Assembly (NCBI GenBank): GCA_964016885.1
Contig: OZ024741.1
Location: forward strand, 147,808,001-147,872,000
Length of the DNA stretch: 64,000 nucleotides
DNA from: Eledone cirrhosa
Taxonomy: Eukaryota
Direction of reading: 5' to 3'
Positions 1 to 34,399 of the stretch are shown in pieces (the first letter of the stretch is position 1; each line of letters opens with the position of its first letter). The notes below the pieces were generated by a model. That model searched no databases. It worked only from the letters and a program-made list of their open reading frames with translations, and had not been told where the DNA came from. Both the position numbers and the translations under genes were made by a program.

Positions 1-120
1 CAAAAGGATGAAAGGCAAAGTTGAGATCGGCGGAATTTGAACTCAGAACGTAAAAACGGAAGAAGTACCGCTAAGCATTTCGCCAGATGTGCTAACGATT
101 CCACCAGCTCACCGCCATAT
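1..120 (-). mobile_element. tRNA-derived SINE, 5' part, cut by the window edge
   Basis: Minus strand has the B-box-like GAGTTCAAATTCCGCCG followed by ACTTTGCCTTTCATCC. The same family recurs at 7826, 14520, 20097, 22520 and 38030. Confidence 0.8.
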
Positions 121-129
121 TTTCACCAG

Positions 130-3100
130 TTATAATGGAATCTGAAATATTGGTTCTACCACGGGCCATAGAAAAGTAGTTCGCGGGCCGTATGTTTGAG
201 CCGTCTGTTGGAGAGAGAGATAGATATATTTAGCCACAAGGGCGCACAAGAAAAGGGGACAATACAAAGACATGCTGGGGATTTTACATACTGTCGTGTA
301 AAAAATATAAAAACAAACAATTACAACAATCGAAATCCCCAATAAGGGGGAAGCGCCACAAATGGGTTGTTTAATACCCCGTCGATAGAACAACCCTCAA
401 CTGCAGGAGCGTGTTGTGCAAGTGCTCCTTTCTTCCTTTTGCTCTCTTCTTCAACCTACAGGCTTATAAACAGAAAAGGCCCAATCACTCGGGCCATTTT
501 CGCTTCATTCACCCACCTTTCAGTAAATTTACTGGGGTGCAGTGCCTCTCTCTCCACTCTGATTCTCCTTCTAAAGTGATACTTAAAGAAGAGAATCAAT
601 TGTTGTCCGGAGAGAAAGGTATCTGTCCTCAGTCCTCTCAATCTCGTCCACCATATAACTTCTTTCACCATAGCCACCGTACAGAGGAAAACCGCCTCTC
701 TTTCGTTTTTGAAAGAGGCTGGCGATTTGATCCTTACTATGGACTCGGCAGTCAACTGGATTTGTCCCATACGCGACAGCAGTTGTTCTGCATAGTTCCA
801 TAGGTTGGTTACGCCCGGGCAGTGTACAATTGCGTGCAGGACTGTTTCAATGTCTTGCGCGCATCTTGGACACGTCCTCTTGGAAGGATCCCTGCCTGTA
901 GATCTTGTCACGAACCAGTAGAGCTCCTCGGTAGCACTGCCAGGCCAGCGACCTCTGGAAGTTGTCCATAGGTCCCGGGCGGAAAGTCCTACCAAACAGA
1001 CTAGTGAGCTCATCGTCTTCGGCACCCAGAGTCTCTCCGAGCACATCGTCGCCCTTGTAACGTACAATCACTCTATAGAATGTCGAAGTGGAGTCTCCAC
1101 TGATTGCTGCGCCCGCTTGCCAGAGGACTGTGAGCGCCTGAGCGCATTCAATGTGCCAGGCGCCCATCGTTTTCGGTCTTTCCTTCACCCAGTACTGCAG
1201 CTCCGTCAGCGAGACGAGCTGTGGAAAAGCCTGTCTCACAAACGGTACCCACACCGGTTGGGGGTCGGTGAGGAATACCTGGAGATGCCGCAGTCTCAGC
1301 GCATGTTTGCGCATCATCAGCCACGGCATTCCCAACCCTCCGTTGGAATGGTGCTCACAGCAGACGGATCTCCTCACCAGCGGAGCCTGCTTCTTCCACA
1401 GAAACTGGAAGAGCATGCGTTCCATCCTGGCGAGGTGTTCACGGGGACAAGGCACGACAGTCAAGCGGTAGTAGATGACGGACGCTATGAAAGTGTTCGC
1501 CACCTCCGCTCGACCTTTCAAGGACAGTTTGCACTCTGCCCACTTCTGGGCAGAGTGCAAACACCTTGGCCGTGACCTCGTTCCAGTTTTTCTCCACCTG
1601 GAGGTCTGGACCGAACCAGACCCCGAGCAATTTCACCGGTCCGTCCGTCCAGCGTCCAACGACGCTGTCGGACGTCATCGGTTTGCCTCTCCACGTACCG
1701 AGTTGCAAACCGACAGACTTGTCCGGGTTTAGTTTTGCTCCCGTCAGCGTTTCGTATTCTTTCAGTAAGTTGCTGATCACCCCGATTTCCGAGGTGCTCG
1801 ACACCATTACCGTCACGTCGTCGGCATAAGCCGACGCCGCTTTGCGCAGTCCCGGTTCTAGAGGGATGCCCTGCAACAGCTCCAATTTCCGCAGTAGTGG
1901 CTCTAGAGTCAATAAATACAGAATGGAGGAGAGAGGGCTCCCCTGTCGAATCGAACGCATGATTGCGAACGGCTCCGATAGGTAGCCGTTCACCTTGACC
2001 CTCGAGCAGATGCTGGTGTGCATCACCTCGATCCATCCTCTGAAAACGGGACCGAAACCGGCCGCCTTGAGAACCGCTTCCAAGTATCGATGGTCGACCC
2101 TATCGAATGCCTTAGACTGATCCAAGTTGATCAGAGCCCCACCGAGGCCGGGTTTACTACCCACCCTCTCTATGATGTATCGCATGAGGTGGAGGTTGTC
2201 GTGTATGGACCTGGTCGGGATTGCACACGTTTGCGCTTTCCCTACCAGGTTCTCGACGGCAAGCGCCAACCTCGTCGCTACCACCTTGGCCAAAATCTTT
2301 AACTCTGTGTTGAGCAGAGTTATGGGCCAGAAGTTGTTAATTTTGTCCCCCTTGTTCTCGTCTTTCCTGATCAGCGTTACTACGCCCTTGCCTGCAGAAC
2401 TGGGAATTCTCCCGTTCTGCTGCCAATTGCAGTAGATGGCTTCGAGGACGCCAGAGAACAAGGCCGGCATGTCTATGTAAAATTCGTAGGGTATACCATC
2501 TAGACCGGGTGACTTGCGTTTCCCGCAGCGGCCCAGAGCGTCCCGTATCTCAGTGTCCGTGATCGGTCTTTCGCAGAACTCGGCGTCCGTGTTCGAGAGA
2601 CGCGGCAGGCCGTCGAGGTATGAACTAAAGTCCATTGCCCCGTTCAGCTCACCGTCGTTCTGCTCAAACAGTCGCGCAAAGTTCCGCTGAAATGCCGCGC
2701 ACATTTGCTTGGGGTCAAGTAGCACGCGTCCGTTTTGGTCTTTCAAAGACCGAATCGTGGACTTGTTGCCACTTTTTGCCTCCGCCACTCGGGCCAGCTG
2801 ACAGCTTTCGCTCCTTCGTTTCCTAGAGCACCTATTTTGCTTCTGACCACGCAGCCTTCGTGTTTCGCATCGAAGAACTGGTCCAGTGCCGTTCTCGACG
2901 CTAACACTCTAGCCGCGTTGCCACTTCTAAGTGCCTCCTCTACCTTGGCTACTAGTTCTCTTTCTATTTTGTTTTTCTCTAAGGCTAACTCTCTGCTATA
3001 CCCTATCGATTCTATTCTAATTGCTTTCTTGAGAGAGTACCACCATCTATTGTTGACGATGGCTCCCGTTAACTGTTGCTTGATTAGTCTACTTATCCGT

Positions 3101-5150
3101 TCACTGTAAGCTTTACGTGCCGGCAACGACACGTTCAGCTTCCAGTATCCGGGACCCTGTCTATGTATTCTATCACGGTTGACTAAGCAGACGACTAACT
3201 TGTGATCTGAATAGGCAACCATGTGCATTCGTGGACAGCTTAACATCTCCTTGTCCTTTTCTCTAATGAAGAACCTATCTAAATACGATCTAGATGTCCC
3301 ACTGCGGTTTGCCCACGTCCACTGTGGTGCAGTCGGGAAATCCAGTCGATACCTATCGGCCAGTTGGAATTGGCCATTGGCCGATTAAAGTTTTGAGGCT
3401 ATTGCACCCCGCTCTACTGGGACATGCTCCCACATAGTCCCATCGTGCATCTAGGATACCATTCCAGTCCCCCCACTAAAAGTAAGGAGCGAGACGTTCC
3501 CAGAAAAGACTCTAGACGCTTAAAGAAGTTTGACCGTGGTTGCGATTGCCCGGTCGGGGCATAAACGGCCACCAGTCTGAAGGCTCCACCTCCGATACTG
3601 TTCACGTCTAGGACTACCAGTCTACCCTCCGGATCCAAGTGTACTTGCTGTACTCCGACGTCCAGCTTCTTCCGAAACATGACAGCCACTCCACCTCCAC
3701 ATCCTGGCTGACAGAGAGATGCGTAGATCTCAAAGTCGTCGAAGATGGGAGGTTAGTTGCTGCCTGTTGTGGATCCTGGATTCGGTGATGGCTATCACAT
3801 CCATACTGTGTGACCTAAGGTCATTTGAATGTTGGCCCTGTTTCCAGGGCATCCCTAGGCCACGCACATTCACGGTTCCAACTCGTAAACTAGCCATGTT
3901 GGTGGAGAAGAGTTGGAGAAAAAGGACGAAAGGTGCACTTACCTTTTCGTTTCCTGGAGATCGGGTTGTTCAATCTCCATGTGGGTGCTGGATGGGGTGT
4001 TGGGTGGGGTGGGGAAACATTTTAACAGGACGCGGTTGATGGGTTTGTGGCAGGGGTTGCCCACATCCTGTGAGAATTTATTTTTTAGGTCATTATAGGT
4101 TTCCATAGAAACCCTTATAAGTTTAAGGTGTGGAGACGATTCTGCCTTGACGAAAGTTTTGCCCTCCGTCTCCACCTTGGGGTTTTGGAAGATGACCTCC
4201 ATCAAACTCTTGTTGTTTGTGTTGATGTATGCGTATTGTTGTTTGTGTTTTTGTTGTGTTGTTTTAGTTGGTTGTTCGTCCGGGAGTTTTCTTTTTATGG
4301 TGGGTGCTTGTGTTTGGGGTAGTGTTGGTGCTGGTTTTGCTGATAGGGGGATGTTTGACTGTGGTGTTGTTTGTGTCTGTGGTTGTGTGTTGGTGTTGGT
4401 GATTGGAGTTTTGGGGGTTTTGTGGTGTCTCTTTTTTTGTTTTTTAGATTTCCGCGGTTCTCCCTCTTCTTCACTTAAAGAAGGAGAAGCAGCTTCATCC
4501 GTCGATGAATAATCATCGTCAGGTGTGTGGGGTAAGGGTATGTTGTGTGGTGGTGGTGTTTCGGTATGTGTGTTTGTGGTAGTGTTTGATGGAGTGGGAT
4601 GGAGTGGGGCTGTATTCTTCAGGGGTGTTGTCTCTGCTTTTTCTGTTGTTGTTGGTTGAGTGTCTGTTTGTTTTGGTGTGGTTGCTCGTTTCGTCTGTCG
4701 TTGTACTTGTGGTGGTGGTGGTTGTTTTGGTGTTGGTGTTTGTAATAGCGGTTTTTTTATGATGTTGTTTTTGTTCGTTTGTGAGCTGTGCTACCACAGC
4801 GAAAGCAATGAAATTTTCGTCATTCTACCGAAATGTTTATTTTGTTGTTATTATCAATAACGACTCTTTCGGGTATTTTGGAGATTCTCTCCGGTTTCAT
4901 TTGCAACAGAATCTCCAAATCTGTGCCCGCCCACCTTTGTCGAATAGATTTTCGTATTGAAAGTATCATATCAGTTTCTGGCTCTACGAAGCCAGCCAAG
5001 ATCCACCAGATGTTAATGTTTGGAGGTATGTTTTTTATTTTTATTTTTTGTGTCCTTTTCCCCATGTATGTAGGGAAAAAGGTGTATGCTTTTGACACCA
5101 TTGGTGTCACAGAGTTTTTGGGGGCGAGTGCCTAGCTTTTAAACAGTACG
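130..5150 (-). mobile_element. Tx1/L1-clade non-LTR retrotransposon, nearly full length, frameshifted
   Basis: ORF2 starts MASLRVGTVNVRGL at 3897 and has APE endonuclease motifs (VAVYAP, GPGYWKLN), RT (SPGLDG, LDQSKAFDRV, QGSPLS, YADD), GGLG and a C-terminal CPRC...ETVLH zinc knuckle ending at 456. ORF1-like low-complexity pieces lie at 3939-5135. Confidence 0.9.
456..3897 (-). pseudogene. Tx1/L1 ORF2 (APE endonuclease, RT, zinc knuckle) broken by frameshifts
   Basis: Split across ORF-track pieces 3414-3689, 2743-3246, 1439-2788, 847-1560 and 456-1067. Confidence 0.88.
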
Positions 5151-5156
5151 GAAACA

Positions 5157-6125
5157 TTTCGTATAAATTACATTTTTTTAAATCATAGTAAAAGCAAATT
5201 TCACCTTCAAAATTCTAACAAAACCTATCAACATGACAAGTGTTAAAATAACATTGTACCGAACCAATTTTTTCTTCATTAGAAAAATAAATCAAAACTT
5301 CTTTATTGCTTCATCATATTAGATACATATTTTTAATAGAATTTACTACAACCCGTAGTAAATTTCTGGCTATGTATGTGATGAGAAGTAGCTCTCATTC
5401 CTACAGAAGAGACTACTTCTCATTGTTGATTTCATTTTCTAGTATCTTAGCATATGTTGCATTGTCTCCTTCTTCCGAGTGTTCGTCGAGATAGATGTGT
5501 GAAAAACCTGAGATTTTACGGGTATATATTTACGTTTTGTTTGTTTGTGACAAGTTTACTGCCTTTTGTTTGATGTTATTCTGCTCATGTTAGATATAGC
5601 GTATCCTGGGAATTAGCCAGTATAGACTTTGTACAAATGCAGAAAGCAAGCAACCATCCATAGGGTATTTGCCATTGGGTAATGTGGTTAGAAAGTTTAA
5701 GGACATAATCATAGGAGAAATTTACGGGTAAAGCAGGGTGGTAGGATAACATCCGTAACCTCCGGTAGTCTTGCATCCATACACACGAATAAAACACAAG
5801 CACATCGCATCCATACACACAAACAAAACACACGCACATCGCATTCATACACACGAACAAAACACGCACATCGCATTCATACACAACTCTTTCTTTCTAT
5901 AATTTTTCCGAAGACTATCCTTACATAAATCCCTTGTAATTCATACATTCTCTCATATAACCAACAACCTTTTTTGCTTACTTTTGTTAAATTACATTCT
6001 AACTAAGTGTCGTTTACAAACGATATCTTTACATATTGCTTGCAAACATCTCGGTTAAAGAACCAACAAAGTTTACTACTTTATTCAATGTACGAGCTAG
6101 ATATTCTATAATCGTCAAATATACT
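5157..6125. repeat. Left arm of the inverted repeat around GPCR1 (reverse complement of the gene's 3' flank)
   Basis: ...GCTAGATATTCTATAATCGTCAAATATACT (ends 6125) is the reverse complement of AGTATATTTGACGATTATAGAATATCTAGC (starts 8484). Similarity continues outward to about 9187, with indels. Confidence 0.92.
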
Positions 6126-7020
6126 CTCGTCTCTCGCTACAGAAGCAAGGGGCCCGATTGCTCCAGTACCTAACAGCCCTCACCAACTGTCTCGTCCGCG
6201 CCAACCTGCCCTGCCATGCTCACGATCTTGTCTTCTCGGCCAGTCTGTCCGCCGTAAGGAAGAATGACGGAGGTGTCCGAACGCATGGCGATGGGCAACG
6301 TCTTCCGACGACTTGCAAGTCAGTCAAAGAGGACCTGAGCGAGGTGCTAAACCCTGTCCAGCTCAGAGTGGGAATCAAGTGCGGATATGAGGCTGCAGTA
6401 TTCCATAGGGCACGCGCCTCCTTCGTCATCCCACCTCCTTATGAAGCTGGACACGACATACGCTTTCAACAGCGTTCCTCCTCTTGAAGAACTGCTTTAC
6501 CCTCCCCAAATTTATGTTCCCGCCGCGCGGTGCATCTTGTCACCCCCATGCAGATCTTCTCGGTGAACTCTACGCCCCATCCGATGCTGTGCAGAACTCA
6601 TGTGCAATGTGAGTTTCGACAGTGCCGGCTGGCAACAGGCGAAGCTACCAGCGAGGTTCGGTGGCCTCGGCCTCAGACCCGCTTCGGATCTGGCTCTAGC
6701 GGCCTACCTTTCCTCAATCTTCTCCAGTAGCGTTCTCGTCAGCGATGTCCTCAGCATGACGGTCGAACATGACGTTGCCCGTCTGAGGAAAGAGTCCCGT
6801 GAGATGGGGTGGCTGTTGCAGCGTGTATCGCTGGCAATTGTCTGTGGAAAAGGTCATGCGGTCTTTTCCGTTGGGCGCAGCTCCAACACCGCCACGCCCT
6901 AGACCCAGAGCCCATCCTCCTCCACTTACCTCTCCCATTTTCTTTGACCCTAGAGCCCTTGCTCTTCCCTTCCTTTTCCGTTTTTAAATATTGATAAAGT
7001 TATTTTCACTGAAAAAAAAA
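6126..7020 (+). mobile_element. CRE-clade-like non-LTR retroelement remnant, 5'-truncated and internally deleted, with A-tail
   Basis: Peptides LQYLTALTN...VRKNDGGVR, QLRVGIKCG, QAKLPARFGGLG and GWLLQRVSLAI, then a pyrimidine-rich 3' UTR and an A run at about 7012-7020. Confidence 0.75.
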
Positions 7021-7194
7021 GTAAAGATAATAATGTGTTAACTATATTGACGTAATCTGCGAGAGTATTGCGTAAGATTTCAAATAGATTATTTCACTAA
7101 AAAGTTGATACACAGCGTTCTCTATTTGTGATTCAACCAAATATTTTCGAATCTGCAAGAACTAATAAAAACATTTGGAAGAAACAAAAAGATA

Positions 7195-8416
7195 ATGGAT
7201 AACAAACATTATTCCAAAGACTGTAATGACACTTTAGAGGAGTTAAATACTGAAATGGTGAATGTTGTGTTTCCAGTAATGCTGTATCTGACAATGATTA
7301 TGGGGTTTGGATCAGTCGGAAATATGTTAGTATCTTATATATACTATTATAAATTTGAGAATACAGCCACAAATTTGTTCATTGTAGCGCTTTCGATGAG
7401 CGATTTTCTTACTTGTATAATAAGCATACCAATTGAACTTATCATTCTAAATTTTCCATACACCTTTTACAGTGCTACTGCTTGCCGCATCATGCGTTTT
7501 ACTACTGTTATAACCATAGTCACTTCATCATTGATTGTATTCATTATAGCAGTTGATAGATACTCACTTATCTGTCGACCTCTTCAAGTTCGATTTTCTC
7601 GTAAGAAGTCATAGTAACTTTAATAATCATCTCCGCCATATTAGGCCTGCCAACAGTTTATATATACAACGCAGAACATCTCAACGTAAAAGACTGTGGA
7701 GATATTGGAAGAGAGTGTTCATTTTCTTCGAAATTGGGTGGTACAATCTATCCTATAATCTATTATGGTGTATTGCTTATTGTTTCTGGTTCTCTGTTTG
7801 TTTTTCTGATGGTAGTTTATATAATTGTTTCTACTTTAGGCACAAGGCCAGCAATTACCCAGTGCATTACTGGTACTTTATTTTATCGACCCCGTAAGGA
7901 TGAAAGGAAAAGTCAACCTCGGCGGGATTTGAACTCAGATCGTAAAGGGACGTAACTATGCTGGAAAGCATGGCGTCCGATGGTAGTTTATATAATGGTT
8001 GCAATACATATTTGGAGATTTTCCGCAAGAAAAGGGCATAGACGCCAAGAGGGAGAGCCAGTCAAATATGCGTCCCATATGCCAAAAGAACCTTCTAGTG
8101 GTACTTCTGGAGCTAATGTTGGTAAGAGACGATTAACGGCTCATCCAAAAAAAATTAAGACTCCTAGAACCAATATACTTTTGTTCACCATCACTTTCCT
8201 TTGGATTCTGACTTATGTACCTCATCTATTCGGCCTAGGATACTGGAGGTTAAAAGAACAGAGCACTTGTTCACCAGAGCACCAAATGGAATTGTAATTT
8301 ATAGGTTCATGCTGTATTCTATTTACTTTAATTCTGCTGTAAACCCATTCATTTATGGAGCTTTTAATACGAGGTTTCGATTTGAATTACAGAATTTGTT
8401 TCATCGATATCATTAA
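7195..8416 (+). pseudogene. GPCR1: class A GPCR pseudogene, close paralog of GPCR2
   Basis: GSVGN, LSMSDFL, AVDRY and NSAVNPFIY motifs. It has a 10-bp deletion frameshift at about 7610 relative to GPCR2, a SINE inserted in TM5 and a second frameshift near 8290. Confidence 0.93.
7826..7978 (-). mobile_element. 5'-truncated SINE inserted in GPCR1 with an 18-bp target-site duplication
   Basis: TSD GATGGTAGTTTATATAAT at 7808-7825 and 7979-7996. B-box GAGTTCAAATCCCGCC on the minus strand. Confidence 0.93.
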
Positions 8417-8483
8417 TAAAATATTGAGTTTCTTGAAAATAGATACAAAAGTACGGAATTCTTAACTCTATAGATCTCACCAA

Positions 8484-9187
8484 AGTATATTTGACGATTA
8501 TAGAATATCTAGCTCATATATTGAATAAAGTAGTAAACTTGGTTGGTTCTTTAACCGAGATGTTTGCAAGCAATATGTAAAGATATCGTTAGAATGTAAT
8601 TTAACAAAAGTAAGCAAAAAAGGTTGTTGGTTATATGAGAGAATGTATGAATTACAAGTGAATTATGTAAGGATAGTCTTTGGAAAAATTATAGAAAGAA
8701 ATAGTTGTGTATGAATGCGACGTGCGTGTTTTTTTGCTCGATTGGCTTTACCTGTAAAATCTCTCCTGTGATTATTTCCTTAAACTTTCTAACCACATTA
8801 CCCAAATGGCAAATATCTTTTGGGTGGTTGCTTGCTTTCTGCATTTGTAGAAAGTCTGCATTGGGTAATTCCCAGGATACGCTATATCTAACATGAGCAG
8901 GATAACATCAAACAAAAGGGGAGTAAACTTGCCACAAACAAACAAAACGTAAATATATACCCGTAAAATCGCACATTTTACACATATCTATCTTGACGAA
9001 CACTCGGAATAAGGAGACAATGCAACATATGCTTAGATACTAGAAAATGAAATCAACATTGTAAAGTAATCTCTTCTGTATGACAGAGTGAAATTTGCTT
9101 TTACTATGATTAAAAAAAAATGTAGTTTACCGTCGCAAATTATTCGTTTTTTGTTGTTTCAATCGAAGAATTCCATCTTAGACAGTT
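8484..9187. repeat. Right arm of the inverted repeat around GPCR1 (native 3' flank)
   Basis: Reverse complement of 5157-6125 and a direct copy of 29421-30135. Confidence 0.9.
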
Positions 9188-9517
9188 GGGCGATTTACGC
9201 CAAACTTGTTTTATTATTTTCTCAGTATTTTCTCATTATGCAATGTTTTGGCTATTTACGAAGTTTTGCGGGTTATGTTAATTTCGAGGTATTTTCCTAG
9301 TATGCACCGCTGTGGCTATTTACGAAGGTACCCCCAAAACCCGCGAATCTCGGGAACCCGGGGTCAGATTTTTGCGAAACTTGTTTTATTCAATTTGTAT
9401 TCCCATTTCAGAGTCAACTTGCTTTCAAAGTATTTACCCATTATGCGCCCTTTTGGCTGTATTACATAACAGACAAGCAAGCAAGCACGCAAGTTCAGAG
9501 TTTTAATAGTATATAGA
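9188..9517 (-). mobile_element. Helitron-like non-autonomous element, 5' fragment
   Basis: Minus strand starts A|TCTATATACTATTAAAA followed by (GCTT)n/(GTCT) tetramers, the same 5' layout as the Helitron at 50227. Confidence 0.55.
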
Positions 9518-9538
9518 TAGATAGATCGATAGATAGAT

Positions 9539-9546
<8 letters not shown>

Positions 9547-9624
<78 letters not shown>

Positions 9625-9675
9625 TAGCGAGAATCGTAATTCGGCTTAGGAATAAACGAAAAACAACTTCCGAGA

Positions 9676-9724
<49 letters not shown>
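9547..9724. repeat. Two (TA)n microsatellites with a short spacer
   Basis: Read directly. Confidence 0.97.
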
Positions 9725-9728
<4 letters not shown>

Positions 9729-11000
9729 TTGCTTTGGGAGGGTCATATTGCCAATAAGAAACAGACGCACCAGTTGCTTTCACTTACTTTGCGCATGTGT
9801 TACATCCGGGTGTCTGTGTGTGTTTATATTTGTTTATTTATTTGTTTATTTACATGTTACTGGTTGGTTGTTTGTTCTATGTGTGTGTGTGTTTTCATTT
9901 TGTCCTTAATTGTAAGTTGTGATGTTGCTGTTCCATTCATGTTTTCTATTTAATTTGGGTTGGAGTTCATTTATGTTTATTGCCTCTGTGATTTGTCTAA
10001 ACATTGCGTCTTTTCTATGTGTAGATTCTATTTTTATTTCTATGTTCTCTAATTTACCCTTATGTTCTATTTTAGCATGTTGGCGGAGTACAGATGATTC
10101 TTTACTATCTTGAAGCTCTCGCCAGTTTTCATTTATCCGTTCCCCTATACTATGAGCTGTCTCACCTATGTACACTATATTCTTATCTCTACTTTGTCCT
10201 TCAGTACATCTTATGCTATATACTACATTTCTAGTTTTACAATCTATACAGGGAGGTCTTTGAAAAGGGTATGTATTGCTAATAAGTGTTTTTATGGAGG
10301 TACCTGGTCTTTCTACTATCTTAATATTGAGTTTATGTTTATCTAGGGCCCTTCTAAATTTGTAAGCTAATTCACCTCTAGGGGTTGTATCTATGAACAT
10401 TACACTCTGGTATTTATTGCTATCATACCATGAGTTTATTTTATTAACCTTATTCCTAGTTCTTTCTATTCTATTCCAAAATTTGCTCCTATACAAGGGG
10501 CAGGTCCCATTTGTATCATTATTTACCATTTTTTCCCATTTGGTTCTGGCTCCTCTATATACTCTGATTTTATCTCTCTGATTGTAACCAGAGAACTGCA
10601 TACGGTGGATGAAGTGTTGTATGTGTCTCTCTAGTTCTTTGGGGTTGCACACGTTTCTCATCACCCGTACCAAATCTGCAATCAGTATGTTGATTTTGGT
10701 ATGGTCCGAAACAGGTGAGTTTCGGTGGATCAGATATTTGGAAGTCATGGGTTTGGCATAATGGGAATGGAGGATTTGTTTTTTGTTATTAATGGTATCT
10801 AACCAGAGCTCTGTGTCTAGTACAGGTAATCGATGGTTGGGGTGTTTGCTTGGGTAGTCTATAGTAACTCTAATACTCTGGTGGATGGAGTTAGCTATTT
10901 GCTGGATGCTTTCCATGGTGTTTTTCTTTAATTCCTGACTGTTCTCTAGTGGGGGTGTTTTTACTACGATGTTTATATCATCAACGTAGCAGGAGTTAAG
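9725..11000 (-). mobile_element. Penelope-like element, 3' part (RT C-terminus and GIY-YIG endonuclease)
   Basis: CYVDDINI at about 10970-10990, LPVLD and VVYSIRC...VYIGET in ORF 9906-10916. Bounded by (TA)n on both sides. Confidence 0.9.
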
Positions 11001-11036
11001 AGGTTAAGAGGTTGCTGTCTTCTAATTGTTTTTTAA

Positions 11037-11039
<3 letters not shown>

Positions 11040-11115
<76 letters not shown>
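11040..11115. repeat. (TA)n microsatellite
   Basis: Read directly. Confidence 0.97.
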
Positions 11116-11118
<3 letters not shown>

Positions 11119-11328
11119 TAAAAGGAAAAGAAAATGCTGACAAATTTTTCCCAGTGAAAAATAGTTTAATTAGGAATAAGTATAAATTAGAATAAGTATT
11201 GGTTAGTATTCAGTTTTAGTTTTAAGTTTTTACCGGTTGCGCATTTCTATGGCTTTTCAAAAATAATTTTGAGATGGAGCGCTCGTGATGTTTTCTTTTC
11301 CTTTTATTAATATATATATATATATATA

Positions 11329-11750
11329 TATAAAGAATTAATATCTAGTAACATATATATACATACAGATGCATATCAATGCTAGCAAATATATAGGTTT
11401 TGTCTTAGTAACTTTGTGGTTCAATGCATGGGGTTGCAGAACAATAATATGAGAGACGTAAAATAAGAAAATTATAAAATTAACTTACTTACTAAAATAT
11501 CACTTCCAACTAATTAGTTTCTGGAATGGAATAAATATATTTTCCGAAGAAGATACAGAAACTAATTAGTTGGAAGTGATATTTTAGTAAGTAAGTTAAT
11601 TTTATAATTTTCTTATTTTACGTCTCTCATTTTATTGTTCTGCAACCCCATGCATTGAACCACAAAGTTACTAAGACAAAACCTATATATTTGCTAGCAT
11701 TGATATGCATCTGTATGTATATATATGTTACTAGATATTAATTCTTTATA
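11329..11750. repeat. Near-perfect DNA palindrome, ~195-bp arms and 32-nt spacer
   Basis: Arms 11329-11523 and 11556-11750 are reverse complements. One mismatch seen. Confidence 0.93.
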
Positions 11751-12102
11751 ATTATCTCCAAATTATTTGTCGAGCAATATTGGCCATGACTGCTGCTATG
11801 GTAGCAGGCCGCTGTCTTATTAGCAAACCACTTTCCACTGATTGACCTCGATGTCACGTGATTGATTCTTTTTGAATTTGCCACCGACGCAGAGGCAGTG
11901 ATTTTCTCAATGGCTAGGAATTCAGTCCACGCTTTGCTATTTCCTATCCACTGAATTATTTTTTAATAAGTTTCCAGTGTCCACGCTTTGTCTGGATACT
12001 TAGATGAGAATAGACCTCCCTGACGACGGAATGCTTCTCTGTATCTTCTTCGGAAAATATATTTTAGTAAGTAAGTTAATTTTATAATTTTCTTATTTTA
12101 CG

Positions 12103-12151
<49 letters not shown>

Positions 12152-12379
12152 TATAATATACATGTATATTGTGAATGTATACAAAACAGGGCAATAAAAA
12201 GTACCAGTATATTTAGGCAGGTTAACTATTCCCTTGTTTCATTGTTTTTGTTAATTTTAAATATATCTGTTGTTTGTTTTTTTCCTTTTAGTTGTTTTAA
12301 AATTAGAAATTTCTATGATGCCAAATAATTTTAAAAGTCATCATGACATATATTTCTTCTATTTCTTAAGTTATTATTC

Positions 12380-13835
12380 ACCAACACAACCACCTCCACT
12401 ATCATCCTCACCACAACTAGCATTATTACCACGATTATCGCCATCGCCACCACCATTATCACCATCACCACCTTCATTACCACTACCATCATCACCATCA
12501 CCACCTTCATCACCACCACCATTATCACCATCACCACCACCATTATCACCATCACCACCACCTTCATCACCACCACTATCATCCTCACCACCACTACCAT
12601 TATTACCATCACCACCACCATCACCATTATCACTATCACCATCTTCATCACCACCACCATTATCCCGCTACCACCTCCATCACCACCACCACCATTATCA
12701 TCATCACCACCTTCATCACCACCACCACTACCATTATCACCATCACCACCTTCATCAGCACCACCATTATCACCATCACCACGACCTTCATCACCCCCAC
12801 CACTACCCTCATCACCACCTTCATCACCCCCACCACTACCCTCATCACCACCTTCATCGCCACCACCATTATCACCATCACCACCACCTACATCAATCCC
12901 CACCACTACCCTCATCACCACCTCCATCACCCCCACCATTATCACCATCACCACCACCTACATCAATCCCCACCACTACCCTCATCACCACATCCATCAC
13001 CCCCACCATTATCACCATCACCACCTCCATCACCCCCACCATTATCACCATCACCACCACCTACACCACCCCCACCACTACCCTCATCACCACCTCCATC
13101 ACCCCCACCATTATCACCATCACCACCACATTCATCACCATCATCACCATCACCACCCCCATCACCACCTTCATCACCACCACCACTACCCTCATCACCA
13201 CCTCCATCACCGCCACCACTACCCTCATCACCACCTCCATCACCGCCACCATTATCACTATCACCACCTCCATCACCATCACCACTACCCTCATCACCAT
13301 CACCACCACCATTATCACCATCACCACCTCCATCACTACCACCTTTATCATCACCATTGTCACTATCACCACCTTAATCACCACCACTACCTCCACTACC
13401 TCCACCACCTTCGTCAACAACAACACCACTATCATCACAGCCATCAGGCCATCATAATCAGTAACACCACCATCATCATCACCACAACCACTACCATCAC
13501 CACCATCACCACTATTATTGCCCTCACTACCATCACCATCACTACCACCACTGCCACCATCACCATCACCTCAAACCATTAGCACCACCAGCACCACCAT
13601 CATTATCATCACCACCATCACATGCACCACCACCACATGCATCGCCATCATCACCTCCATCACATGCACTACCACCAGATGCACCACCTTCACATGCACC
13701 ACCACCACTACCACATGAACCACCACCACCACCACGTGCACCACCTTCACATGCACCACCACCACATGCACCACCATAACATGCACCACCACCACCACAT
13801 GCAACACCACAACCACCATAAGCGACATCATAGTT
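12380..13835. repeat. Degenerate (CAC/CAT)n low-complexity and minisatellite tract
   Basis: Repeated ACC/ATC triplets with higher-order units such as CCTCCATCACCCCCACCATTATCACCATCA. Confidence 0.93.
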
Positions 13836-13959
13836 ATCTCCCATTACTCTCTTTCAGTAACTCTGAAACCTAAGAATATACCTAACAAAACTGATATATA
13901 TCATACTAGTTGAGGTACACTCGAGTGAACAGTTGATAAGAGAAGACAGGTAGAAGAGA

Positions 13960-14399
13960 AAACGACTGCATTGGATATTCTGCCTTGAAGAGTCCTTTGT
14001 GCTCATCATGTTTGCATCGCAACTCTCATTGCCTCTCGGTGATTTTCATATTCAACTTCCGTTTGTTGGGATCATCTTTCTTCTTGCCTTAGTCTTTCTG
14101 TTTCCTGTCTCAGGTTCTGTTCACTTTCAGAAAGTTGCACTCGTCTTTCTTCTTGCCTTAATCTTTGTGTTTCCTGTCTCAGGTTCTGTTCACTCTCAGA
14201 AAGTTGCGATCGTCTTTCTTGTTGTCTTAACCTTTCTGTTTCCCGTCTTATATTCTACTGAATATCAAAATGTTGACTTTTCCCTTTATTCCCAAGTTTG
14301 TTTTTTTATATTGTTTGTGGGTTTCTCTTTCACTTGAAGATTTCAACCGTTTGGCGGATATTGTAACTCCCTGATAGATTAGCAGTGTTTTGGTGGCAT
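13960..14399 (-). pseudogene. Decayed ORF with 69-bp (23-aa) E/R/Q-rich repeats, STPR-like, possibly a Helitron N-terminus
   Basis: TTTCCTGTCTCAGG recurs at 14101 and 14170. The minus strand reads RQEERRVQLSESEQNLRQETERL per unit, preceded by MPPK and SAKRLKSSSERET. Stops and frameshifts present. Confidence 0.55.
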
Positions 14400-14519
14400 C
14401 ATCAAATTAACTTTCTTGGAAAATAGCAGGAAAAAAAAAACAATACAAAGCAATATTATGTTTAAATGCAAATAGCAGCCTTAGAGAATAGGTTGACACT
14501 ATCATCTGAATTAGGATAA

Positions 14520-14640
14520 TAATTGTTTCTACTTTTGGCACAAGGCCAGCAATTATCTCAGTACATTACTGGTACTTTATTTCATCGACCCCGTAAGGAT
14601 GAAAGGCAAAGTTAACCTCAGAAGTATTTGAACTCAGAAT
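14520..14640 (-). mobile_element. SINE fragment
   Basis: TTTCTACTTTTGGCACAAGGCCAGC...TTTGAACTCAG, same family as 7826. Confidence 0.85.
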
Positions 14641-15739
14641 TAGGATAATAATAACATGACACTATCCTCAAAAAGCTAAATTAATATACACTATAGATTA
14701 ATTTCAAATAGTATCTATTTTTTCTGTGTTCTGTAAAATCAAAGATTGATATAAAGCGACTTTATAAAAGCTAATGCAATATTGTTAAACCTTCAACTGA
14801 TACTTTGATCTAAAGACGATTCTAGACTTTTGTGGAATTACATCCCCCCCCCCCCCACAGACACACACACACATACATACACATCTTCGTTGACGCACAC
14901 ACACATGCACACAGAAATAAATATATAACATCTCTCTTTCACTTTCTCTTTTAATAGTTTAATAGTTAGTAGAGATGCGGGTGAGATGGATAGTAATGAT
15001 GATGATGATGATGATAAAGAGTGAATAAGATAATGGGTGATTGAATAGAAAACAGATGCCCTCCCTAGAGCTGGGCATAATAAGTGGGTGTATATCACAA
15101 AGGATAGAAAGAGGTGATTTAATTGGGAGTGTAGTGAGCAAGAAGCCCAATACAGCCTGTTACTATCATTACCACCTTAACAACCATTCCACTCTGCTTG
15201 CACCAAGAAATGGGTTTTCTTACACACAACACATTGTCAGCCATCTCCTTCATGAGGGTCGGCTTTTTGAGGTCTGTCTTCACCACTTCTTACCATGTCT
15301 TCCTTGGCCTCCATCTTTGACAAGCTCCTTTTACTTAAAACTCCCAACACTTCTTAATACAACTAGCATCCTTCATGTCAACACCGGCACAGTTTTCACT
15401 GATGTATACTACATTATATTCCTCTTATAGATAGCTTTTATTTTAATTTCTTTGTGCTGTCATTCATGTACACTAATGTTACACACAGACACTGCAATAT
15501 GCACACTTCATTGTTTTCCAATCATTTCAGATTGTTTATATTCAAGACCCATGTTTTGCTTCTATGCAATATTGCAGTCTGTACACATGTGTCAATTATA
15601 CATACTATGTACACAGTATAGAGTTTCTGCCTACTCCGTGCATATGGAACAGAGGCCTTATATTCCATCAAGGCAAGAAATATATTGAATTAAATTTATT
15701 AACTGGTAAATATTGTAAGTGTTTCAATATATATATAAA

Positions 15740-18700
15740 TCATCATCATTTTACGTCCGTTCTTCCCTGCTTGCAAGAGTGGGACGGGTCTTATTCAGCA
15801 CAGCATCTCTCTATTTGTCACGGTCCTTCGTCATCTCCACCGTGAGCTTCAGTGATCTGAGGTCTGTTCTCACCACCTCCGCCCATGTTTTTCCTGGTCT
15901 ACCTCTACCACGCCTTCCTTCAACTGGCATTTCCTCACCCATCGGTCATCTTCCATGCGCATCACATCTCCATGCCACTTCAGTCTCCTCTCCCGTACCC
16001 TACATTCTATCCCTCTCAGACACAGTTTCTCTCTCAACACATTCATGCTGGGCCGTTCACGCACATTGACATTGCACATCCAACAGAGCATGCTTGCCTC
16101 ATTTCCCTCCAGCCGTCGCATATCCTCTGCAGTTGCTGCCCATGTCTCACTACCATGCAACATCGCGCTCCTCACACAGGCATCATATAACCGGCCTTTC
16201 GTACGCAGGGAGAAACCCTTCTTCTTCAGCAGAGGAAGCAGCTCCCTAAACTTCTTCCAACCCGTCCTTATTCTAGATACTATGGCCTCGGAACACCCCC
16301 CTCCCATGCTAATCTGATCTCCTAGGTACCGGAAGCTATCCATCACTTCTATAGCACCCGCCTGCATTTGAAAAATGTGTCTATCAATGTGACTTCTACT
16401 GTCTAATTTCCCTGTACAACTACTGCATACATATTTCTCCCTACCTGTTAGTTTGCCTGCTATCCCGCTACATCTCTTTTATACCTAGGATATGCATTGT
16501 GTGCATTTTATAGAATTTATCCCAGTTCCTTTTCTGCATATCGAACATGGCCATTTCCATGACAGAATCAGAGTTTTGTCCTCTTTTCTACTCATCAACA
16601 CTTTTGTCTTAGCTAGGTTCACTCTCAGTCCTCTTGCTTCCAACTGCTGTTTCCATAGCCAGAATTTATTCTCTAGCTCCTCTACTGATTCTGCTATAAG
16701 AACCAGATCGTCAGCATAGAGAAGTTCCCATGGACAGCCAGTCTTAAACTCCTCTGTTATGGCTTGGAGGACTATAATGAACAAGAGCGGGCTGAGGACC
16801 GAACCTTGATGTACTTCTACTTGTATCTGGAATTCCTCACTAAACTCCATTCCTACCCTGACTTTACTGACAGTACCTCTGTACAAAGTTTGCATTGTCC
16901 TCACAAGCCATTCCTCAACACCTAGTTTCCTTAGGGACCACCAGATGACAGATCGGGGTACCCTATCAAAGGCCTTCTCTAGGTCAACAAAGATTAAGTA
17001 TAGTGGCTTATTTTTCTCTAAAAACCTCTCTTGAAATTGTCTCACCAAGAAGAGGGCATCTGTTGTACTCTTCCCAGGCACAAAACTAAACTGCATCTCA
17101 TCTAGTTTGATCCTTTCTCTAATTAGTTGTGCTAATATCCTTTCTGCCACTTTCATAACCTGATCCATCAGTTTTATACCCCTATAATTGCTCCTCTCCA
17201 GAGCATCCCCTTTACCTTTGTAGCAATTTATGAGAATACTGCTGCACCAGTCTTTGGGTATGACACCACCATATATAGCCTGATTAATGATGCGTGAAAC
17301 CAGTTTAGTGCCTACGTCCCCTGATGCCTTCAGCATCTCAGCAACTATTCCCGATGGTCCAGCAGCCTTACCATTTTTCATTTCCTTAATCGCCTCTTGG
17401 ATCCTATATCCGTCAATCTCAATAGCTGGTCCATCTGTCGGATCTACTGGCGGTAATTTCACTCTCTCCCATTCGTTCTCCAGATTCATCAGTCTCTCAT
17501 AATGACATTTCCAGGCCTCCTTTTTCTGATCATTCGTGACACTAAGTATACCGGCATCGTTCCGGACACATTTATCTCCAACAACATCCTGATTTGCATT
17601 GACACACTGCCTTGTAATGTGGAACACCGAACGCCTCTGATCTTCCCGTCGCAGAACATTGGCAAACTTCCTACTCTCAGCCTCCCTGCGTGCTAAGTAC
17701 ACCTAACATCTAGCTTCTCTCTTAGCGGCTGTATATTCTTCCCTACTCCCACCCTTTTTCCAAGCCTTCCATGCTAGTCTTTTGTCTCTAATGGCCTTAT
17801 CTACTGGGCGGGCTGTTCCACCACCAGGTCACTCTCTGTATGGTTGGAGCTCTGCTCCAGCCACAAGTTTCATCAGTAGCCTGCAGTAAGTTGTCATGTA
17901 AAAAATTCCAGTTATCATCTATGTCATACGTCTATAAATCGTCTTCTTTTTCGTCATACACATCTTGAAGGGCTTTCCTAAATTTGTCTTTTAGTGAAAG
18001 GTCTTTTAGCTTCCAGACCTTTCTTTTCCACACATTCCTGTATGTCTCATTCCATCTCTTGCTTACTGAGATGTCACTAACGACTAACCTATGCTGTTGA
18101 GTACCTTCTTCCCCGGGGTATGCCTGAGTATTTGACACTATCTGTCTGTCTCGCTGCCTAACTAGTAAGAAGTCAATCTGGCTTATGTGCTCGCCAGATT
18201 TGTAGGTTATTAGGTGGTTGGTAGGTTTCTGGAAGTTAGTGTTGCAAATGGTTAGCGCACTTGCATCACAAAATTCAAGACGCTTCACTCCTTCTTCATT
18301 TCTTGAGCTGTAACCGTGCCCACCATGTACCTCAGTGTATCCATCCTGGAACTGTGCAACATGACCATTGAAGTCCCCTGCTAGCATAACGACGTCTCCG
18401 TCCTCTGTCATTCAGGCTGTTTGTAAAAGTTGCTCGTAAAAGCATACTTTCTCTTCTTTACCTAGGCTTGCCTGGGGAACATAGGCAGAGATGATTGTCA
18501 GTAGTCTCTTGCCTACAACTAATCTAAGCTTAATTATTCTATTACTAACTCTAACTACCTTTATTATCTTATCGATCCATCTCTCAGCCAGTAATATGCC
18601 TACCCCACCTAACCCATCATCATTACCTACCCAGAAAAGCTTATAACTAAGATGTTTGCTTGCGATAAGTCTTGCAGAGGCACCTCTCCATCTCACCTCT

Positions 18701-18910
18701 TGCAGGCAGCACACATCCACATGCCTTCTCTCCAGCATCTCCACTATCGCACCAGATCTTCCTGTTAGAGTGCCAACATTAAGTGTGGCAAATCTGAGAT
18801 GTGACGTCTTCATATCCTTGTTCTTTTTCCTTTTGTGCGATTGCTTGATCACAGGGGTTCTCGCACATGGCCTCACCAGCCACCCCACTACCGTGCGCAT
18901 CCCTAACATG
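15740..18910 (-). mobile_element. RTE-clade LINE, near full length, with stops and frameshifts
   Basis: APE motifs (ATLNVGTL, CCLQEVRW, AGDFNGHV, SQIDFLL), RT (NYRGIKL, VDLEKAFDRV, QGSVLSP, YADD), a Cys-rich WPCSIC insert, MLHGSETW and an (ATG)n 3' tail near 15740. Confidence 0.93.
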
Positions 18911-18928
18911 GTTAGTGTTATTGCTGTT

Positions 18929-19989
18929 TACACAAAAAAATGTTTATATATCAAGCTTCTTTCTGTCCTGATGCCTCTATATGAATGCTCGAGTATTGGT
19001 GTTCAGATAAATGGTGCTAAATTGAAACCATTCAATGTGAGATCAGACTCTGCCAAGGGTGCATGCTGTCTCTTCTCCTGTTTATTGGATTGACATGTGC
19101 AGCCGGGTTGGAAGTGGCAGGTGTAAAATCAGTCGGCTAGAATTTGCAGACAACAAGGTGTTACTCAACAGAAGGTGATCTCTGACTTGCACTTGATAGG
19201 TTTGAAACTGAGTGCTTCATGACTGGAAAGAAAATTAGTGCTGCAAAAACTGAGACACTCGTCTTCTCAAAGAAGCCTGCAGAGTGCACTCTGCATGTGA
19301 ATGAAGTTCCATTGAAGCAGATGGAGAAGTTCAAGTATCTCAGAGCCATATTCATGAGTGATGGAAGGCAGGAGACTGAGTTAAGTGCAAGAATTGCATG
19401 AGCTGGTGCAGTAATACGCCAACTTTGTCAATCAGTAACCAGAGAAGGGAGGTAGATGTAAAAGCTAAACTCGTTATCTTCAATTTGGTATTCATGTCAA
19501 CCCTTAGCTATGGTCATAAATCTTAGCTAATGACCGAAAGAATATGATCGCGAATACAAGCGGCCAAAATGGGATGCCTCCATATCTATATATTATCATT
19601 AAGTCCAGCTCTACAATGAAAACATAACAGGAACATGCATTTCGTTGGCTTAACCAACTTTTCAACCTGTGCTGGGGGAAAAAGAACTGGAAATAATTTA
19701 TATAAGGGAGGGAGATCAACTTGTGCTAGGGAAAAAAGAACCAGAAATAGCTTAGGAATAATATAAAGGAAGGAAGAAAATTATAGAAAGAAATGTTAAG
19801 AAACCAGCATGGGGGACCCTTGCAGTTAGAATGAATGAGTATAGAGTTACATGCTACGTAGGCCGTAGGCCAAACCCAAAAGATTCGAAAGAAGGATAAC
19901 GTAGGGATAAAGTAAGGTATAGGAGCAAATATGTTTTTAGAGTTAACTGCAGCGAAATAAATTAAAAAAGCCCATTTAGGCTACTGACA
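18929..19989. repeat. Outer left arm of the large palindrome, containing an RTE RT fragment (about 19100-19580, +)
   Basis: Reverse complement of 45937-47004. The ORF track gives an identical 60-aa peptide at 19219-19401 (+) and 46526-46708 (-). Confidence 0.92.
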
Positions 19990-20096
19990 CATTTTCATAA
20001 CTAGATCGAAGACTGTATTAACTGGAAACTCACCATTTTCAAGATGATATTTGTCATTACTGAGATTACGTGTTGGAAACTGAACCAAATCATATA

Positions 20097-20280
20097 ATTG
20101 TTTCTACTTTAGGCACAAGGCCAGCAAATACCCAGTGCATTACTGGTACTTTATTTTATCGACCCCGTAAGGATGAAAGGCAAAGTCAACCTCGGAGGGA
20201 TTTGAACTCAGATCGTAAAGGGACGTAACTATGCTGGAAAGCATGGCGTGCGACCCTCTACCGATACTGCCAATCCACCG
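20097..20280 (-). mobile_element. SINE, present in the left arm only
   Basis: Long copy of the SINE family. The mirrored site at about 37755-37775 lacks it. Confidence 0.85.
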
Positions 20281-21019
20281 TTTATGCAGTCTTTATATAT
20301 TAAATTACCATATTTCCCGGCGTCGAAGGCGCTACTTTTTTTTCATAAAATAAGTCTGGAGGCCGACGGTTGTTTATTATTTTTTTTTTTCAAATTTTTG
20401 CCGCCGGGAAATACAGTAAAATGTGTTCGCCTGGCTATAATCGACTAGAAACAGCAATGAAAAAAACATAGTTGGTAATTGTTTATCATAGAAATGTGAG
20501 CAAAGTTCATATGTCTGAAACCTAAAGTAACACAGAAAAAAGCCTACTTAACCTTACCCGGACGAAAGCTAGGAAATTTCGCAATTTATCATTCATCTTA
20601 ATGTTATCTCCATAATTATGCAGTTGGTGCCAGTACATCTCCCAACAAGATATGATTTCTGCTCTGTTAACCTGGCTTTCACACACTGAAGCATTAACAC
20701 TGCAGTAACTCAACCACTCTTACAACACGCGGGTTTCATTTACAAACAAAAGAAAAAGAAAAGAAAACACAGAAAAATTAATTCAAAAACAAACAAAAAA
20801 AGATCTATCGCCTTGCTTCTCCAAATTTTTATCGGTGAAGATTCTCATCAAGCATCTGCTAACGAAATGTGTTAGTTTTTGAAGCCCCAACTTGTTCGTG
20901 CAGCAATTCGGCAATCTTGGAAAAGTTAATTCTACATAAGTGGATATAATTCAGACTAAGAGTCAGACCTGTAGTGATTGAATGAATTTCTCCACAATTT
21001 AGCTGCCCATATTATAGAT

Positions 21020-22430: not shown

Positions 22431-22455
22431 TGTAGGCTTTGTATTATTATATTTC

Positions 22456-22802
22456 TTTAAATATATACATAAATAACATTACAAATACGTAAATAACATA
22501 AATAAAAAGAAATATAATAATTATTTCTACTTTTGGCACAAGACCAGCAATTATCCCAATGCATTACTGGTACTCTATTTCATCGACCCCGTAAGGATGA
22601 TAGGCAAAACTCGGCGGGTCTAAGTTCAAATCCCGCCGAGGTTAACTTTGCCTTTCATCCTTACGAGGTCGATGAAATAAAGTGCCAGTAATGCACTGGG
22701 ATAATTGCTGGCCTTGTGACAAAAGTAGAAATAATTATCATATTTCTTTTTATTTATAATGTTATTTACGTATTTGTAATGGTATTTATGTATATATTTA
22801 AA
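22456..22802. repeat. Fold-back palindrome centred in a SINE
   Basis: Two head-to-head SINE halves plus about 65 bp of mirrored AT-rich flank on each side. Confidence 0.88.
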
Positions 22803-22844
22803 ACATATTTGTAATATTATTCAACACTAAATAAAAAGTGGAAA

Positions 22845-28183: not shown

Positions 28184-28357
28184 GTAAAAATAGTAATGTG
28201 TTAACTATATTGACGTAATCTGCGAGAGTAATGCGTAAGATTTCAAACAGATTCTTTCACTAAAAAGTTGATACACAGCGTTCTCTATTTGTGATTCAAT
28301 CAGATATTTTCGAAGCTGCAAGAACTAATTAAAACATTTGGAAGAAAGAAAAAGATA

Positions 28358-34340: not shown

Positions 34341-34399
34341 TTTCAGGAACACAATCCCAACTCACTCTACCATTGGAGAACTTTATCCAACTCCCTGTT

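Follow-up and report, generated by a model that had tools for sequence, protein, structure and literature searches.

The inverted-flank cassette at positions 5157–9187 of the window (the whole analysed stretch of 64,000 nucleotides of Eledone cirrhosa DNA) is best explained as the scar of a rearrangement within a tandem class A GPCR gene cluster, left by a deletion within a head-to-head gene pair and then multiplied by segmental duplication; we put the probability of this reading at roughly 0.7. The sequence-only reading had come close to it. Its preference for a head-to-head pair that lost the left gene and was later duplicated, over a TIR element, agrees with the data, while its assumptions that the arm is the gene's own flank, that there are two copies, and that the gene is intact had to be given up. 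The scar represents ordinary gene-cluster turnover and mainly illustrates the reshuffling of the cluster. The stronger lead is the cluster itself, a small testable set of receptors suitable for expression mapping and ligand screens.

Layout of the cassette and its borders

The inverted-arm layout at 5157–9187 is real, and its arms are about 90% alike. The left arm (5158–6125, minus strand) is the 3' flank of a missing paralogue, beginning 64 nt past its stop codon, close to the earlier estimate of about 65 nt. The gene's own 3' flank lies at 8420–9187 (plus strand), with the right arm at 8484–9187. Positions 5399–5734 pair with 9083–8745 (90.6% over 339 nt, E 1e-129), 5856–6125 with 8735–8484 (90.0% over 270 nt, E 1e-104), and 5164–5204 with 9129–9088 (E 7e-9). 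Segment 8520–8599 of the own flank appears to have been converted from the left arm. As described previously, a retroelement remnant with an A-tail and a leader of about 175 bp precede the receptor sequence: the remnant (6126–7020, plus strand) is of the non-LTR type, carries internal deletions, ends in a run of nine A and is cut on its 5' side by the junction with the arm, and the leader (7018–7194, plus strand) measures 177 nt and likely contains the promoter/5' UTR.

The block occurs again, with the same inner junctions, at 26322–30138 (95% over 5158–7829), as had been noticed from the letters. In this copy 2, sequence comparison placed the remnant and leader at 27291–28357, followed by the gene and by its own 3' flank and spacer at 29357–37864 (all on the plus strand). 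Its left arm is far longer, extending over 19995–27290 (minus strand) against a right arm at 29421–37864, and comprises most of the intergenic spacer of the missing minus-strand cluster unit. The arm thus measures 0.97 kb in copy 1 and 7.3 kb in copy 2, and positions 5157 and 9187 cannot be the borders of a unit, as they had been taken to be. A further dispersed repeat sits inside the spacer. Counterparts of the copy 2 leader, 90–96% identical, were found in eight paralogues; in two others tested it was unalignable. The Rfam scan of 4500–31000 gave no matches.

Copy 1 is bounded on both sides by the ends of unrelated repeats, not by those of a duplicated unit. The left border is defined by the terminal part of a young high-copy dispersed repeat (4850–5160, minus strand), for which, of 40 scored matches, 38 come from other places in the genome, with 96–98% identity and ends at 5160–5164. 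This repeat is likely the 5' end of a minus-strand LINE, whose reverse transcriptase frame (1439–2704) contains an RVT_1 domain at 1442–2704. The right border is defined by an unrelated high-copy dispersed repeat (9190–9500), with 38 of 40 scored matches elsewhere at 92–95%, nearly all starting from 9190 (2377 candidates). It is common to copy 1 and to a further copy, A, and absent from copy 2.

The inner junction and the copies that carry it

A 27-mer spanning the inner junction has exactly four matches genome-wide, all within 90 kb (C2:147746156-147835298), whereas the reversed control 27-mer has none. The cassette described as present twice does have a second copy where it was reported, but the junction exists in four: copies A and 2 with an intact frame, and copies 1 and B, which are broken. 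The arms of copies A, 1, and 2 are 96.6–97.6% alike (97.6% over 6911 aligned nt between the long left arm of copy 2 and that of copy A), and the junction is common to all three.

Remnant, leader, and gene all recur in the paralogue at C2:147907141-147908196, but here the remnant extends 376 nt beyond the junction point, in register with all three dispersed copies compared. The junction therefore does not mark the original 5' terminus of an inserted retroelement; it cuts older sequence, and the arm begins inside the common flank. A fuller copy of the remnant element contains RVT_1, and the best solved matches of a homologue are R2 proteins, through the reverse transcriptase part only; the homologues returned included no named reference element. 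The element likely belongs to a family with a reverse transcriptase plus a REL endonuclease; the REL endonuclease and the CRE-like assignment are presumed from its motifs.

Contigs from three runs of one sample, possibly the assembled one, cross the junction with no mismatches over 84 nt, with 22 nt lying to its left (below the 31-nt rule). Two RAD-seq runs had almost no reads at the junction. Contigs of two runs also contained an opposite-strand joint (26188/30230), one half of which is identical to a paralogue; it may represent a flipped allele or a paralogue's flank.

Origin of the left arm

The left arm had been regarded as an inverted copy of the cassette's own 3' flank, but it belongs to a paralogue. 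It is 94–96% identical to the flanks of six paralogues and 92.6% to that of a seventh, as against 90–93% to the own flanks of the cassette genes. Two blocks kept in the left arms are missing in all three own flanks. A single clade of left arms and own flanks was rejected (p-AU 0.0022; 336 columns, 15 rows), and this tree test rules out an own-flank origin. The two arms were thus never copies of one gene's flank, and each left arm resembles the right arms of other copies at least as closely as the one in its own copy.

No extant paralogue is a clear donor. The long arm is 93.4% and 92.4% identical to two paralogous spacers and 92.0% to its own spacer (3169 shared columns); the margin among candidates is small, and the tree leaves the donor side unsettled, flank trees in this cluster being blurred by gene conversion.

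That the arm might be a dispersed repeat independent of GPCR genes, a possibility raised at the outset, was not borne out: among the best 40 of 521 candidates scored, all long matches fall in the GPCR cluster, and those outside it are 55–75 nt long and confined to one part of the arm. In paralogues without an upstream arm, the same sequence is the ordinary 3' flank. Neither arm nor leader sequence was found at three distant GPCR loci.

The receptor cluster and selection on its genes

The cluster holds 13 long intronless class A GPCR frames, three broken copies, and three fragments in 464 kb. Its units stand in both orientations and include local paralogues with common flanks, some of them broken. 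A second head-to-head pair (63.7–70.9 kb minus, 74.6–84.2 kb plus, window-relative) has 3' fragments as its inner genes. The fragment at window-relative -114 kb was considered as a processed copy marking a poly(A) site and was rejected, being without an A tail.

The copy 1 sequence at 7195–8419 (plus strand), previously called a GPCR, is a pseudogene with no intact ORF (139 aa, then a stop). Relative to the intact sister copy A, it has a 10-nt deletion after 7608, a 171-nt insertion, and a 1-nt deletion after 8249; a SINE-like dispersed repeat (7808–7996) lies in it, flanked on either side by an 18-nt target sequence (7808–7825 and 7979–7996). The copy 2 gene (28358–29356, plus strand) is an intact single-exon frame of 332 aa (7tm_1, E 1.9e-28). 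The paralogue at 38659–39738 (plus strand) is also intact, with 359 aa, a different leader, and a 3' flank that is alike over about 80–100 nt only. Both frames score 100 bits for 7tm_1 (curated cut-off 30.5). Sequence comparison revealed the 3' end of a further, broken paralogue at 63670–64000 (minus strand). Positions 1–19652 belong to one arm of a recent inverted duplication of 20 kb (99.4–99.7%), the other arm of which (C2:147781541-147801689) contains copy B. Compared with copy 1, copy B has 116 nt inserted and about 840 nt deleted, and most of its right arm is lost.

Flank modules of the cassette copies are 94–98% alike and the coding parts 87–89%. The coding sequences of the cluster are under strong diversifying selection: whole-gene dN/dS is 2.1–2.2 across the receptors, a class with dN/dS near 4 takes in about 44% of codons, and the selected sites are concentrated in ECL2 and in the outer half of TM5. 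For the two intact cassette genes pairwise dN/dS is 3.5 (p 0.001 against 1), which indicates that both were translated after the junction arose. Among seven pairs, one (the 38659 gene and a close sister) had a ratio of 0.9 and another was borderline (p 0.03–0.10). Recombination was rejected as the source of the signal, which persists in pairwise tests and in three thirds with their own trees. A-to-G hyper-editing found no support as the cause of coding divergence: A/C and A/T transversions are numerous among the first-position differences.

One cysteine at the top of TM3 and two within ECL2 are retained in these receptors. Their nearest named homologues, both at 40%, are annotated as 'orexin receptor type 2-like' in Octopus vulgaris and 'CCK receptor type A-like' in O. 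sinensis. Whole-gene dN/dS above 2, together with the sites in ECL2 and TM5, suggests receptors for variable outside ligands, with chemosensory, reproductive, or immune roles.

Proposed mechanism and alternative explanations

In the proposed mechanism, the precursor would be two cluster units standing head-to-head. A single deletion would have taken out the left gene, its breakpoints lying 64 nt beyond that gene's stop codon and within the remnant upstream of the right gene; the junction could have been sealed in one end-joining event with 1 nt of microhomology. It is now present in four copies, likely through segmental duplication. The promoter probably lies within the 1.07 kb that remains upstream of the ATG, and its retention would leave the gene expressed and diverging under positive selection. 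The promoter would thus be bounded by the rearrangement, genes with only 1.07 kb of upstream DNA having kept evolving under selection. Apart from occasional gene conversion, the arms themselves would serve no function.

A deletion and an inversion that lost its second product are indistinguishable here. With breakpoints in the remnant upstream of one gene and 64 nt past the stop of another, an inversion would yield the identical junction, and the cluster units do alternate in orientation. We nevertheless consider it improbable. Its reciprocal junction was not found: the 376 nt cut off from the remnant have no second close copy among the best 40 of 1600 candidates, and of the 13 gene ends inspected (one too short to reach +64) none departs from the common flank at +64.

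Less probable still, the arms could be kept because a read-through hairpin or antisense RNA, diced or edited, damps paralogues through their 3' flanks. The predicted duplex has 636 bp at -900 kcal/mol (non-complementary control, -222), with the longest perfect pairing of the arms at 71 nt in copy 1 and 104 nt in copy 2. In 10 of the 11 genes tested, 87 to 363 perfect 21-mers recur in the flank, the junction has multiplied to four copies, and soybean GmIRCHS offers a plant precedent (PMC3406792). Yet the arms are non-coding, with their start 64 nt beyond the stop codon. An AATAAA hexamer overlaps the stop codon in six gene ends, copies 1, 2, and A among them, so the right arm is probably excluded from the mature mRNA; in copies 2 and A no further poly(A) hexamer occurs within 400 nt. 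Nor are the arms kept matched within a copy, as the comparison with other copies' right arms showed; the long ones are broken by repeats, and copy B lacks most of one. The enclosed intact genes diverged under selection and hence were not silenced throughout. It is doubtful that this could be an animal counterpart of plant inverted-repeat silencing, in which transcription running into the left arm would produce hairpin or antisense RNA to the common 3' flank of about 10 fast-evolving paralogues, would tune or restrict receptor expression against a background of heavy A-to-I editing, and would be the reason for the four copies.

An assembly artefact of the repetitive cluster is very unlikely. 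Copy B could suggest one, given its near-identity to copy 1 across the 20-kb inverted duplication; its insertion and deletion relative to copy 1 speak against this. Copies A, 1, and 2 differ by 2–6% in flanks and 11–13% in coding sequence, yet have a common junction, which the contigs also cross. Some doubt about independence remains for copy B only.

A DNA transposon or foldback element with long TIRs that captured and moved the receptor gene is suggested by the near-symmetrical arm ends of copy 1 and by the four copies, but is ruled out, in line with the earlier view of a merely superficial resemblance, by the lack of fixed ends (see the arm lengths above), by borders formed by other repeats, by the absence of a target-site duplication at either outer border pair (copy 1; the long arms of copy 2), by the confinement of all junction copies to 90 kb, and by the occurrence of the arm as an ordinary flank of genes without an upstream arm.

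Comparison with known systems

TIR and foldback elements such as Pack-MULEs can carry host genes. The cassette resembles them in placing a host gene between long inverted repeats, and differs in having no fixed termini, target-site duplication, or dispersal, and in arms that are host gene flank. A literature search for such inverted-flank loci, with subscription papers mostly outside its scope, returned nothing specific. The inverted repeat of rice Lgc1 reportedly arose by a deletion mechanism. Like Lgc1 and soybean GmIRCHS (PMC3406792), the Eledone cassette has an inverted repeat formed through rearrangement within a multigene cluster. The GmIRCHS repeat, as described in PMC3406792, is perfect and 1087 bp long; it consists of gene sequence, its copies are separated by 78 bp and follow a captured promoter, and both dsRNA and siRNAs were demonstrated. 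The arms of the Eledone locus are non-coding, about 90% alike, 2.1–2.4 kb apart, and without a known upstream promoter.

Cephalopod-specific expansions of class A GPCRs (groups 1 and 2) were reported by Ritschard et al. 2019 (PMC6408891). Judged by the annotations of homologues at 38–40% identity, the Eledone receptors resemble these groups as class A receptors of a molluscan clade whose annotations are those of neuropeptide receptors (orexin, CCK, and others), and the two further share tandem co-localisation and branch-level positive selection. That study found no sites passing its site test, and the passages compared describe no inverted flanks, whereas the Eledone cluster has both inverted flanks and a large class of selected codons. 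Lineage-specific class A expansions in lophotrochozoans, proposed to be chemoreceptors, similarly form tandem arrays with species-specific copies, pseudogenes, and variable ligand pockets; according to the passages considered, those sets are without the TM3–ECL2 disulfide, the cysteines of which are kept in Eledone, and cephalopods have few such expansions, with a mean of 29 (PMC11886862). The inverted-flank cassette is best read as ordinary rearrangement within a gene cluster, while the receptors themselves are unusually fast in amino-acid change, and the cluster is notable within a group reported to have few such expansions.

Cluster setting and layout of the cassette

The region examined around the window comprised 464 kb of contig C2 (OZ024741.1; C2:147658001-148122000, with one 200-N gap) in an assembly of 3.0 Gb. 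It contained one GPCR family represented by 13 frames longer than 300 aa (one with a frameshifted tail), three broken copies and three fragments, the cluster units lying in both orientations. Both intact window genes (28358-29356 and 38659-39738) matched Pfam 7tm_1, and six homologues were returned at 28%–41% identity, those named being from Octopus vulgaris, Argonauta hians, O. sinensis and Mya arenaria, so an octopod host is probable.

Recent 8-15 kb tandem duplications (99%–100% identity) at C2:147.947-148.017 Mb bear near-identical receptor copies, and five genes there have NRY in place of DRY. A tail-to-tail inverted pair in the window (39496-40946 and 62592-64000, 92%) comprises the end of the 38659-39738 gene and a broken paralogue. 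Another inverted repeat (52826-53468 and 58782-59430) is 649 nt long and 97.8% identical, and a simple-repeat array rich in CAC/CAT at 12315-13830 produces spurious long ORFs.

The cassette follows the order of inverted left arm, retroelement remnant, leader, GPCR and 3' flank, as the sequence-only reading described. Self-comparison of the window revealed the inverted arms of copy 1 (5399-5734/8745-9083 at 90.6%, 5856-6125/8484-8735 at 90.0%, and a third pair, 5164-5204/9088-9129), as well as a second block in direct orientation at 26322-30138. The left arm starts 64 nt 3' of the stop codon of the missing gene; in copy 1 it is followed by the remnant at 6126-7017 and by a 177-nt leader (7018-7194) directly 5' of the GPCR. 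Copy 2 (around 26322-30138) lies inside a much longer inverted repeat, 19995-27290 versus 29421-37864, with pieces 78%–92% identical. The main proposal, a head-to-head gene pair that lost its left gene and was then duplicated, holds but needs corrections concerning arm origin, copy number and borders.

Copies and outer borders

The cassette had been taken to be present twice; a genome-wide search for the 27-nt arm/remnant junction found four occurrences, all inside 90 kb. Copy A (C2:147.745-147.749 Mb, plus strand) and copy 2 carry intact GPCRs of 353 and 332 aa. Reading stops at 139 aa in copy B (C2:147.792-147.795 Mb, minus strand) and in copy 1 (5157-9187). The copy 1 gene has lost 10 nt after 7608 and 1 nt after 8249, and a 171-nt insert, accompanied by a target duplication of 18 nt, interrupts it. 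A recent 20-kb inverted duplication (C2:147781541-147801689 and C2:147806788-147827652, the latter reaching window position 19652; spacer about 5 kb) carries copy B in the first arm and copy 1 in the second. Its arms are 99.4%–99.7% identical and differ by one insertion (116 nt) and one deletion (about 840 nt).

The left border of copy 1 coincides with the terminus of a repeat that is present on many contigs in 97%–98% identical copies, and the right border is the start of a different high-copy repeat, common to copy A. Since both borders are ends of other repeats, and no target-site duplication was found around 5157-9187, this block has no ends of its own as a unit, contrary to its initial delimitation. 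An orphan 186-nt fragment at C2:147694043-147694228 is made up of the final 27 codons plus 94 nt of flank; it sits immediately after the first ~20 bases of the repeat found at the 9190 border of copy 1.

Origin of the left arm and the junction

The left arm was first seen as an inverted copy of the gene's own 3' flank. In pairwise alignment, the copy 1 arm was 94%–96% identical to six flanks of other cluster genes, 92.6% to a seventh, and 90%–93% to three own flanks. It retains two blocks absent from every own flank; one of these two gaps also occurs in the minus-strand paralogue at C2:147.907 Mb. In a tree of a 336-column block covered by all 15 rows, the own flanks and this paralogue formed a group (support 98/95), and the best tree uniting left arms with own flanks was rejected (p-AU 0.0022). 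Over 3,169 columns, the long arm was 93.4% and 92.4% identical to two paralogous spacers and 92.0% to the own spacer, a small margin, and no extant paralogue stood out as donor. The donor was likely the deleted gene itself.

The remnant is a member of a dispersed RT family, possibly CRE to judge by its motifs. It lies upstream of at least seven paralogues without an inverted arm and is therefore old. In the 147.907 Mb paralogue it extends 376 nt beyond the junction point, in register with dispersed copies; the junction thus cuts both partners. Junction microhomology is 1 nt, and a search for the reciprocal rearrangement product did not find it. Given a second head-to-head pair at window-relative 63.7-84.2 kb, in which both inner genes are 3' fragments only, a head-to-head pair followed by deletion is the simplest path to the junction.

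Regarding an assembly artefact, three runs of one sample, possibly the assembled one, yielded contigs that span the junction without a mismatch over 84 nt, of which 22 nt lie on the left, below the tool's 31-nt rule. More weight against an artefact comes from the presence of the same junction in three copies that have diverged from one another. The cassette is real, but as a cluster rearrangement it is ordinary. Window positions 26188 and 30230 are also connected, on opposite strands, in contigs of runs X1 and X2, the alternatives being the flank of a paralogue and an allele that has flipped between the arms.

Possible arm contact and hairpin potential

The copy 1 arms are predicted to form a 636-bp duplex of -900 kcal/mol, versus -222 for the control. 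For a hairpin to arise, transcription would have to begin over 1 kb upstream of the ATG and continue beyond +64. AATAAA overlaps the stop codon in copies 1, 2 and A and at three other gene ends. Within 400 nt, copies 2 and A contain no second poly(A) hexamer; copy 1 has a further one at about +108.

Left and right arms do not stay matched within individual copies, and copy B has lost most of its right arm. At eight sites within 8520-8599, copy 1 has in its right arm the base of the left arm where copies 2 and A share a different one; two of these eight bases are absent from all other paralogues covering them. No fixed difference occurs before 8659. The same test gave 0 sites for copy 2 and four scattered sites for copy A. 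Judged from these alignments, 8520-8599 reads as a short gene conversion from left to right arm in the copy 1 lineage, in cis or between copies, and would be one trace of contact between arms. The apparent tract introduces AATAAA.

Leader module and selection on the receptors

The leader at 7018-7194 and eight others are 90%–96% identical, with proteins about 50%–70% identical; even gene pairs with about 50% protein similarity have leaders that are 94%–96% alike. Such near-identical leaders on divergent proteins suggest a promoter module that is conserved or has been shuffled. The leader contains TGACGTAA and TGCGTAA, which we take to be bZIP-like motifs. The gene at C2:148096362 combines a coding sequence near the 38659-39738 type with flanks of the genes carrying this leader and is likely a chimera. 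DRY is replaced by ARY in the 148.096 Mb gene.

Comparison of copies 1, 2 and A gave 94%–98% similarity for the arm, the remnant, the leader and the 3' flank, versus only 87%–89% for the coding parts. Codon models were fitted to 11 of the 13 long frames, leaving out the frame with the frameshifted tail and one identical duplicate, over 277 codons after removal of gapped columns, ICL3, ECL3 and the ends. We used an in-house script whose M0 likelihood was identical to that of IQ-TREE, with branch lengths scaled from M0 and naive empirical Bayes. Whole-gene dN/dS was 2.18 (F3x4) or 2.13 (F61), with p about 1e-10 against 1. M2a fitted better than M1a (2dL 124 and 114, respectively), placing 44% of sites near 4, and every alignment third with its own tree retained the signal (2dL 38-52). 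Sites above 0.95 were concentrated in TM3, helix 8 and residues 163-196, the last probably corresponding, by motif position, to ECL2 and outer TM5. Pairwise maximum-likelihood dN/dS was 3.5 between copies A and 2 (p 0.001); among seven pairs, four gave 3-5 (p <=0.001), two 1.6-1.8 and one 0.9. The selected cluster spans window genes 28358-29356 and 38659-39738 and paralogues in C2:147.747-148.097 Mb. The locus is of note mostly for how strong this diversifying selection is on the receptors it encloses.

Comparison with known systems

Our literature search returned no description of this inverted-flank arrangement in a cephalopod. Two papers report tandem, positively selected expansions of class A GPCRs in cephalopods (PMC6408891) and lophotrochozoans (PMC11886862), and their supplements may list orthologues of this cluster. 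In soybean, inverted repeats of a gene cluster silence paralogues (PMC3406792); the present locus would resemble them only if read-through occurs.
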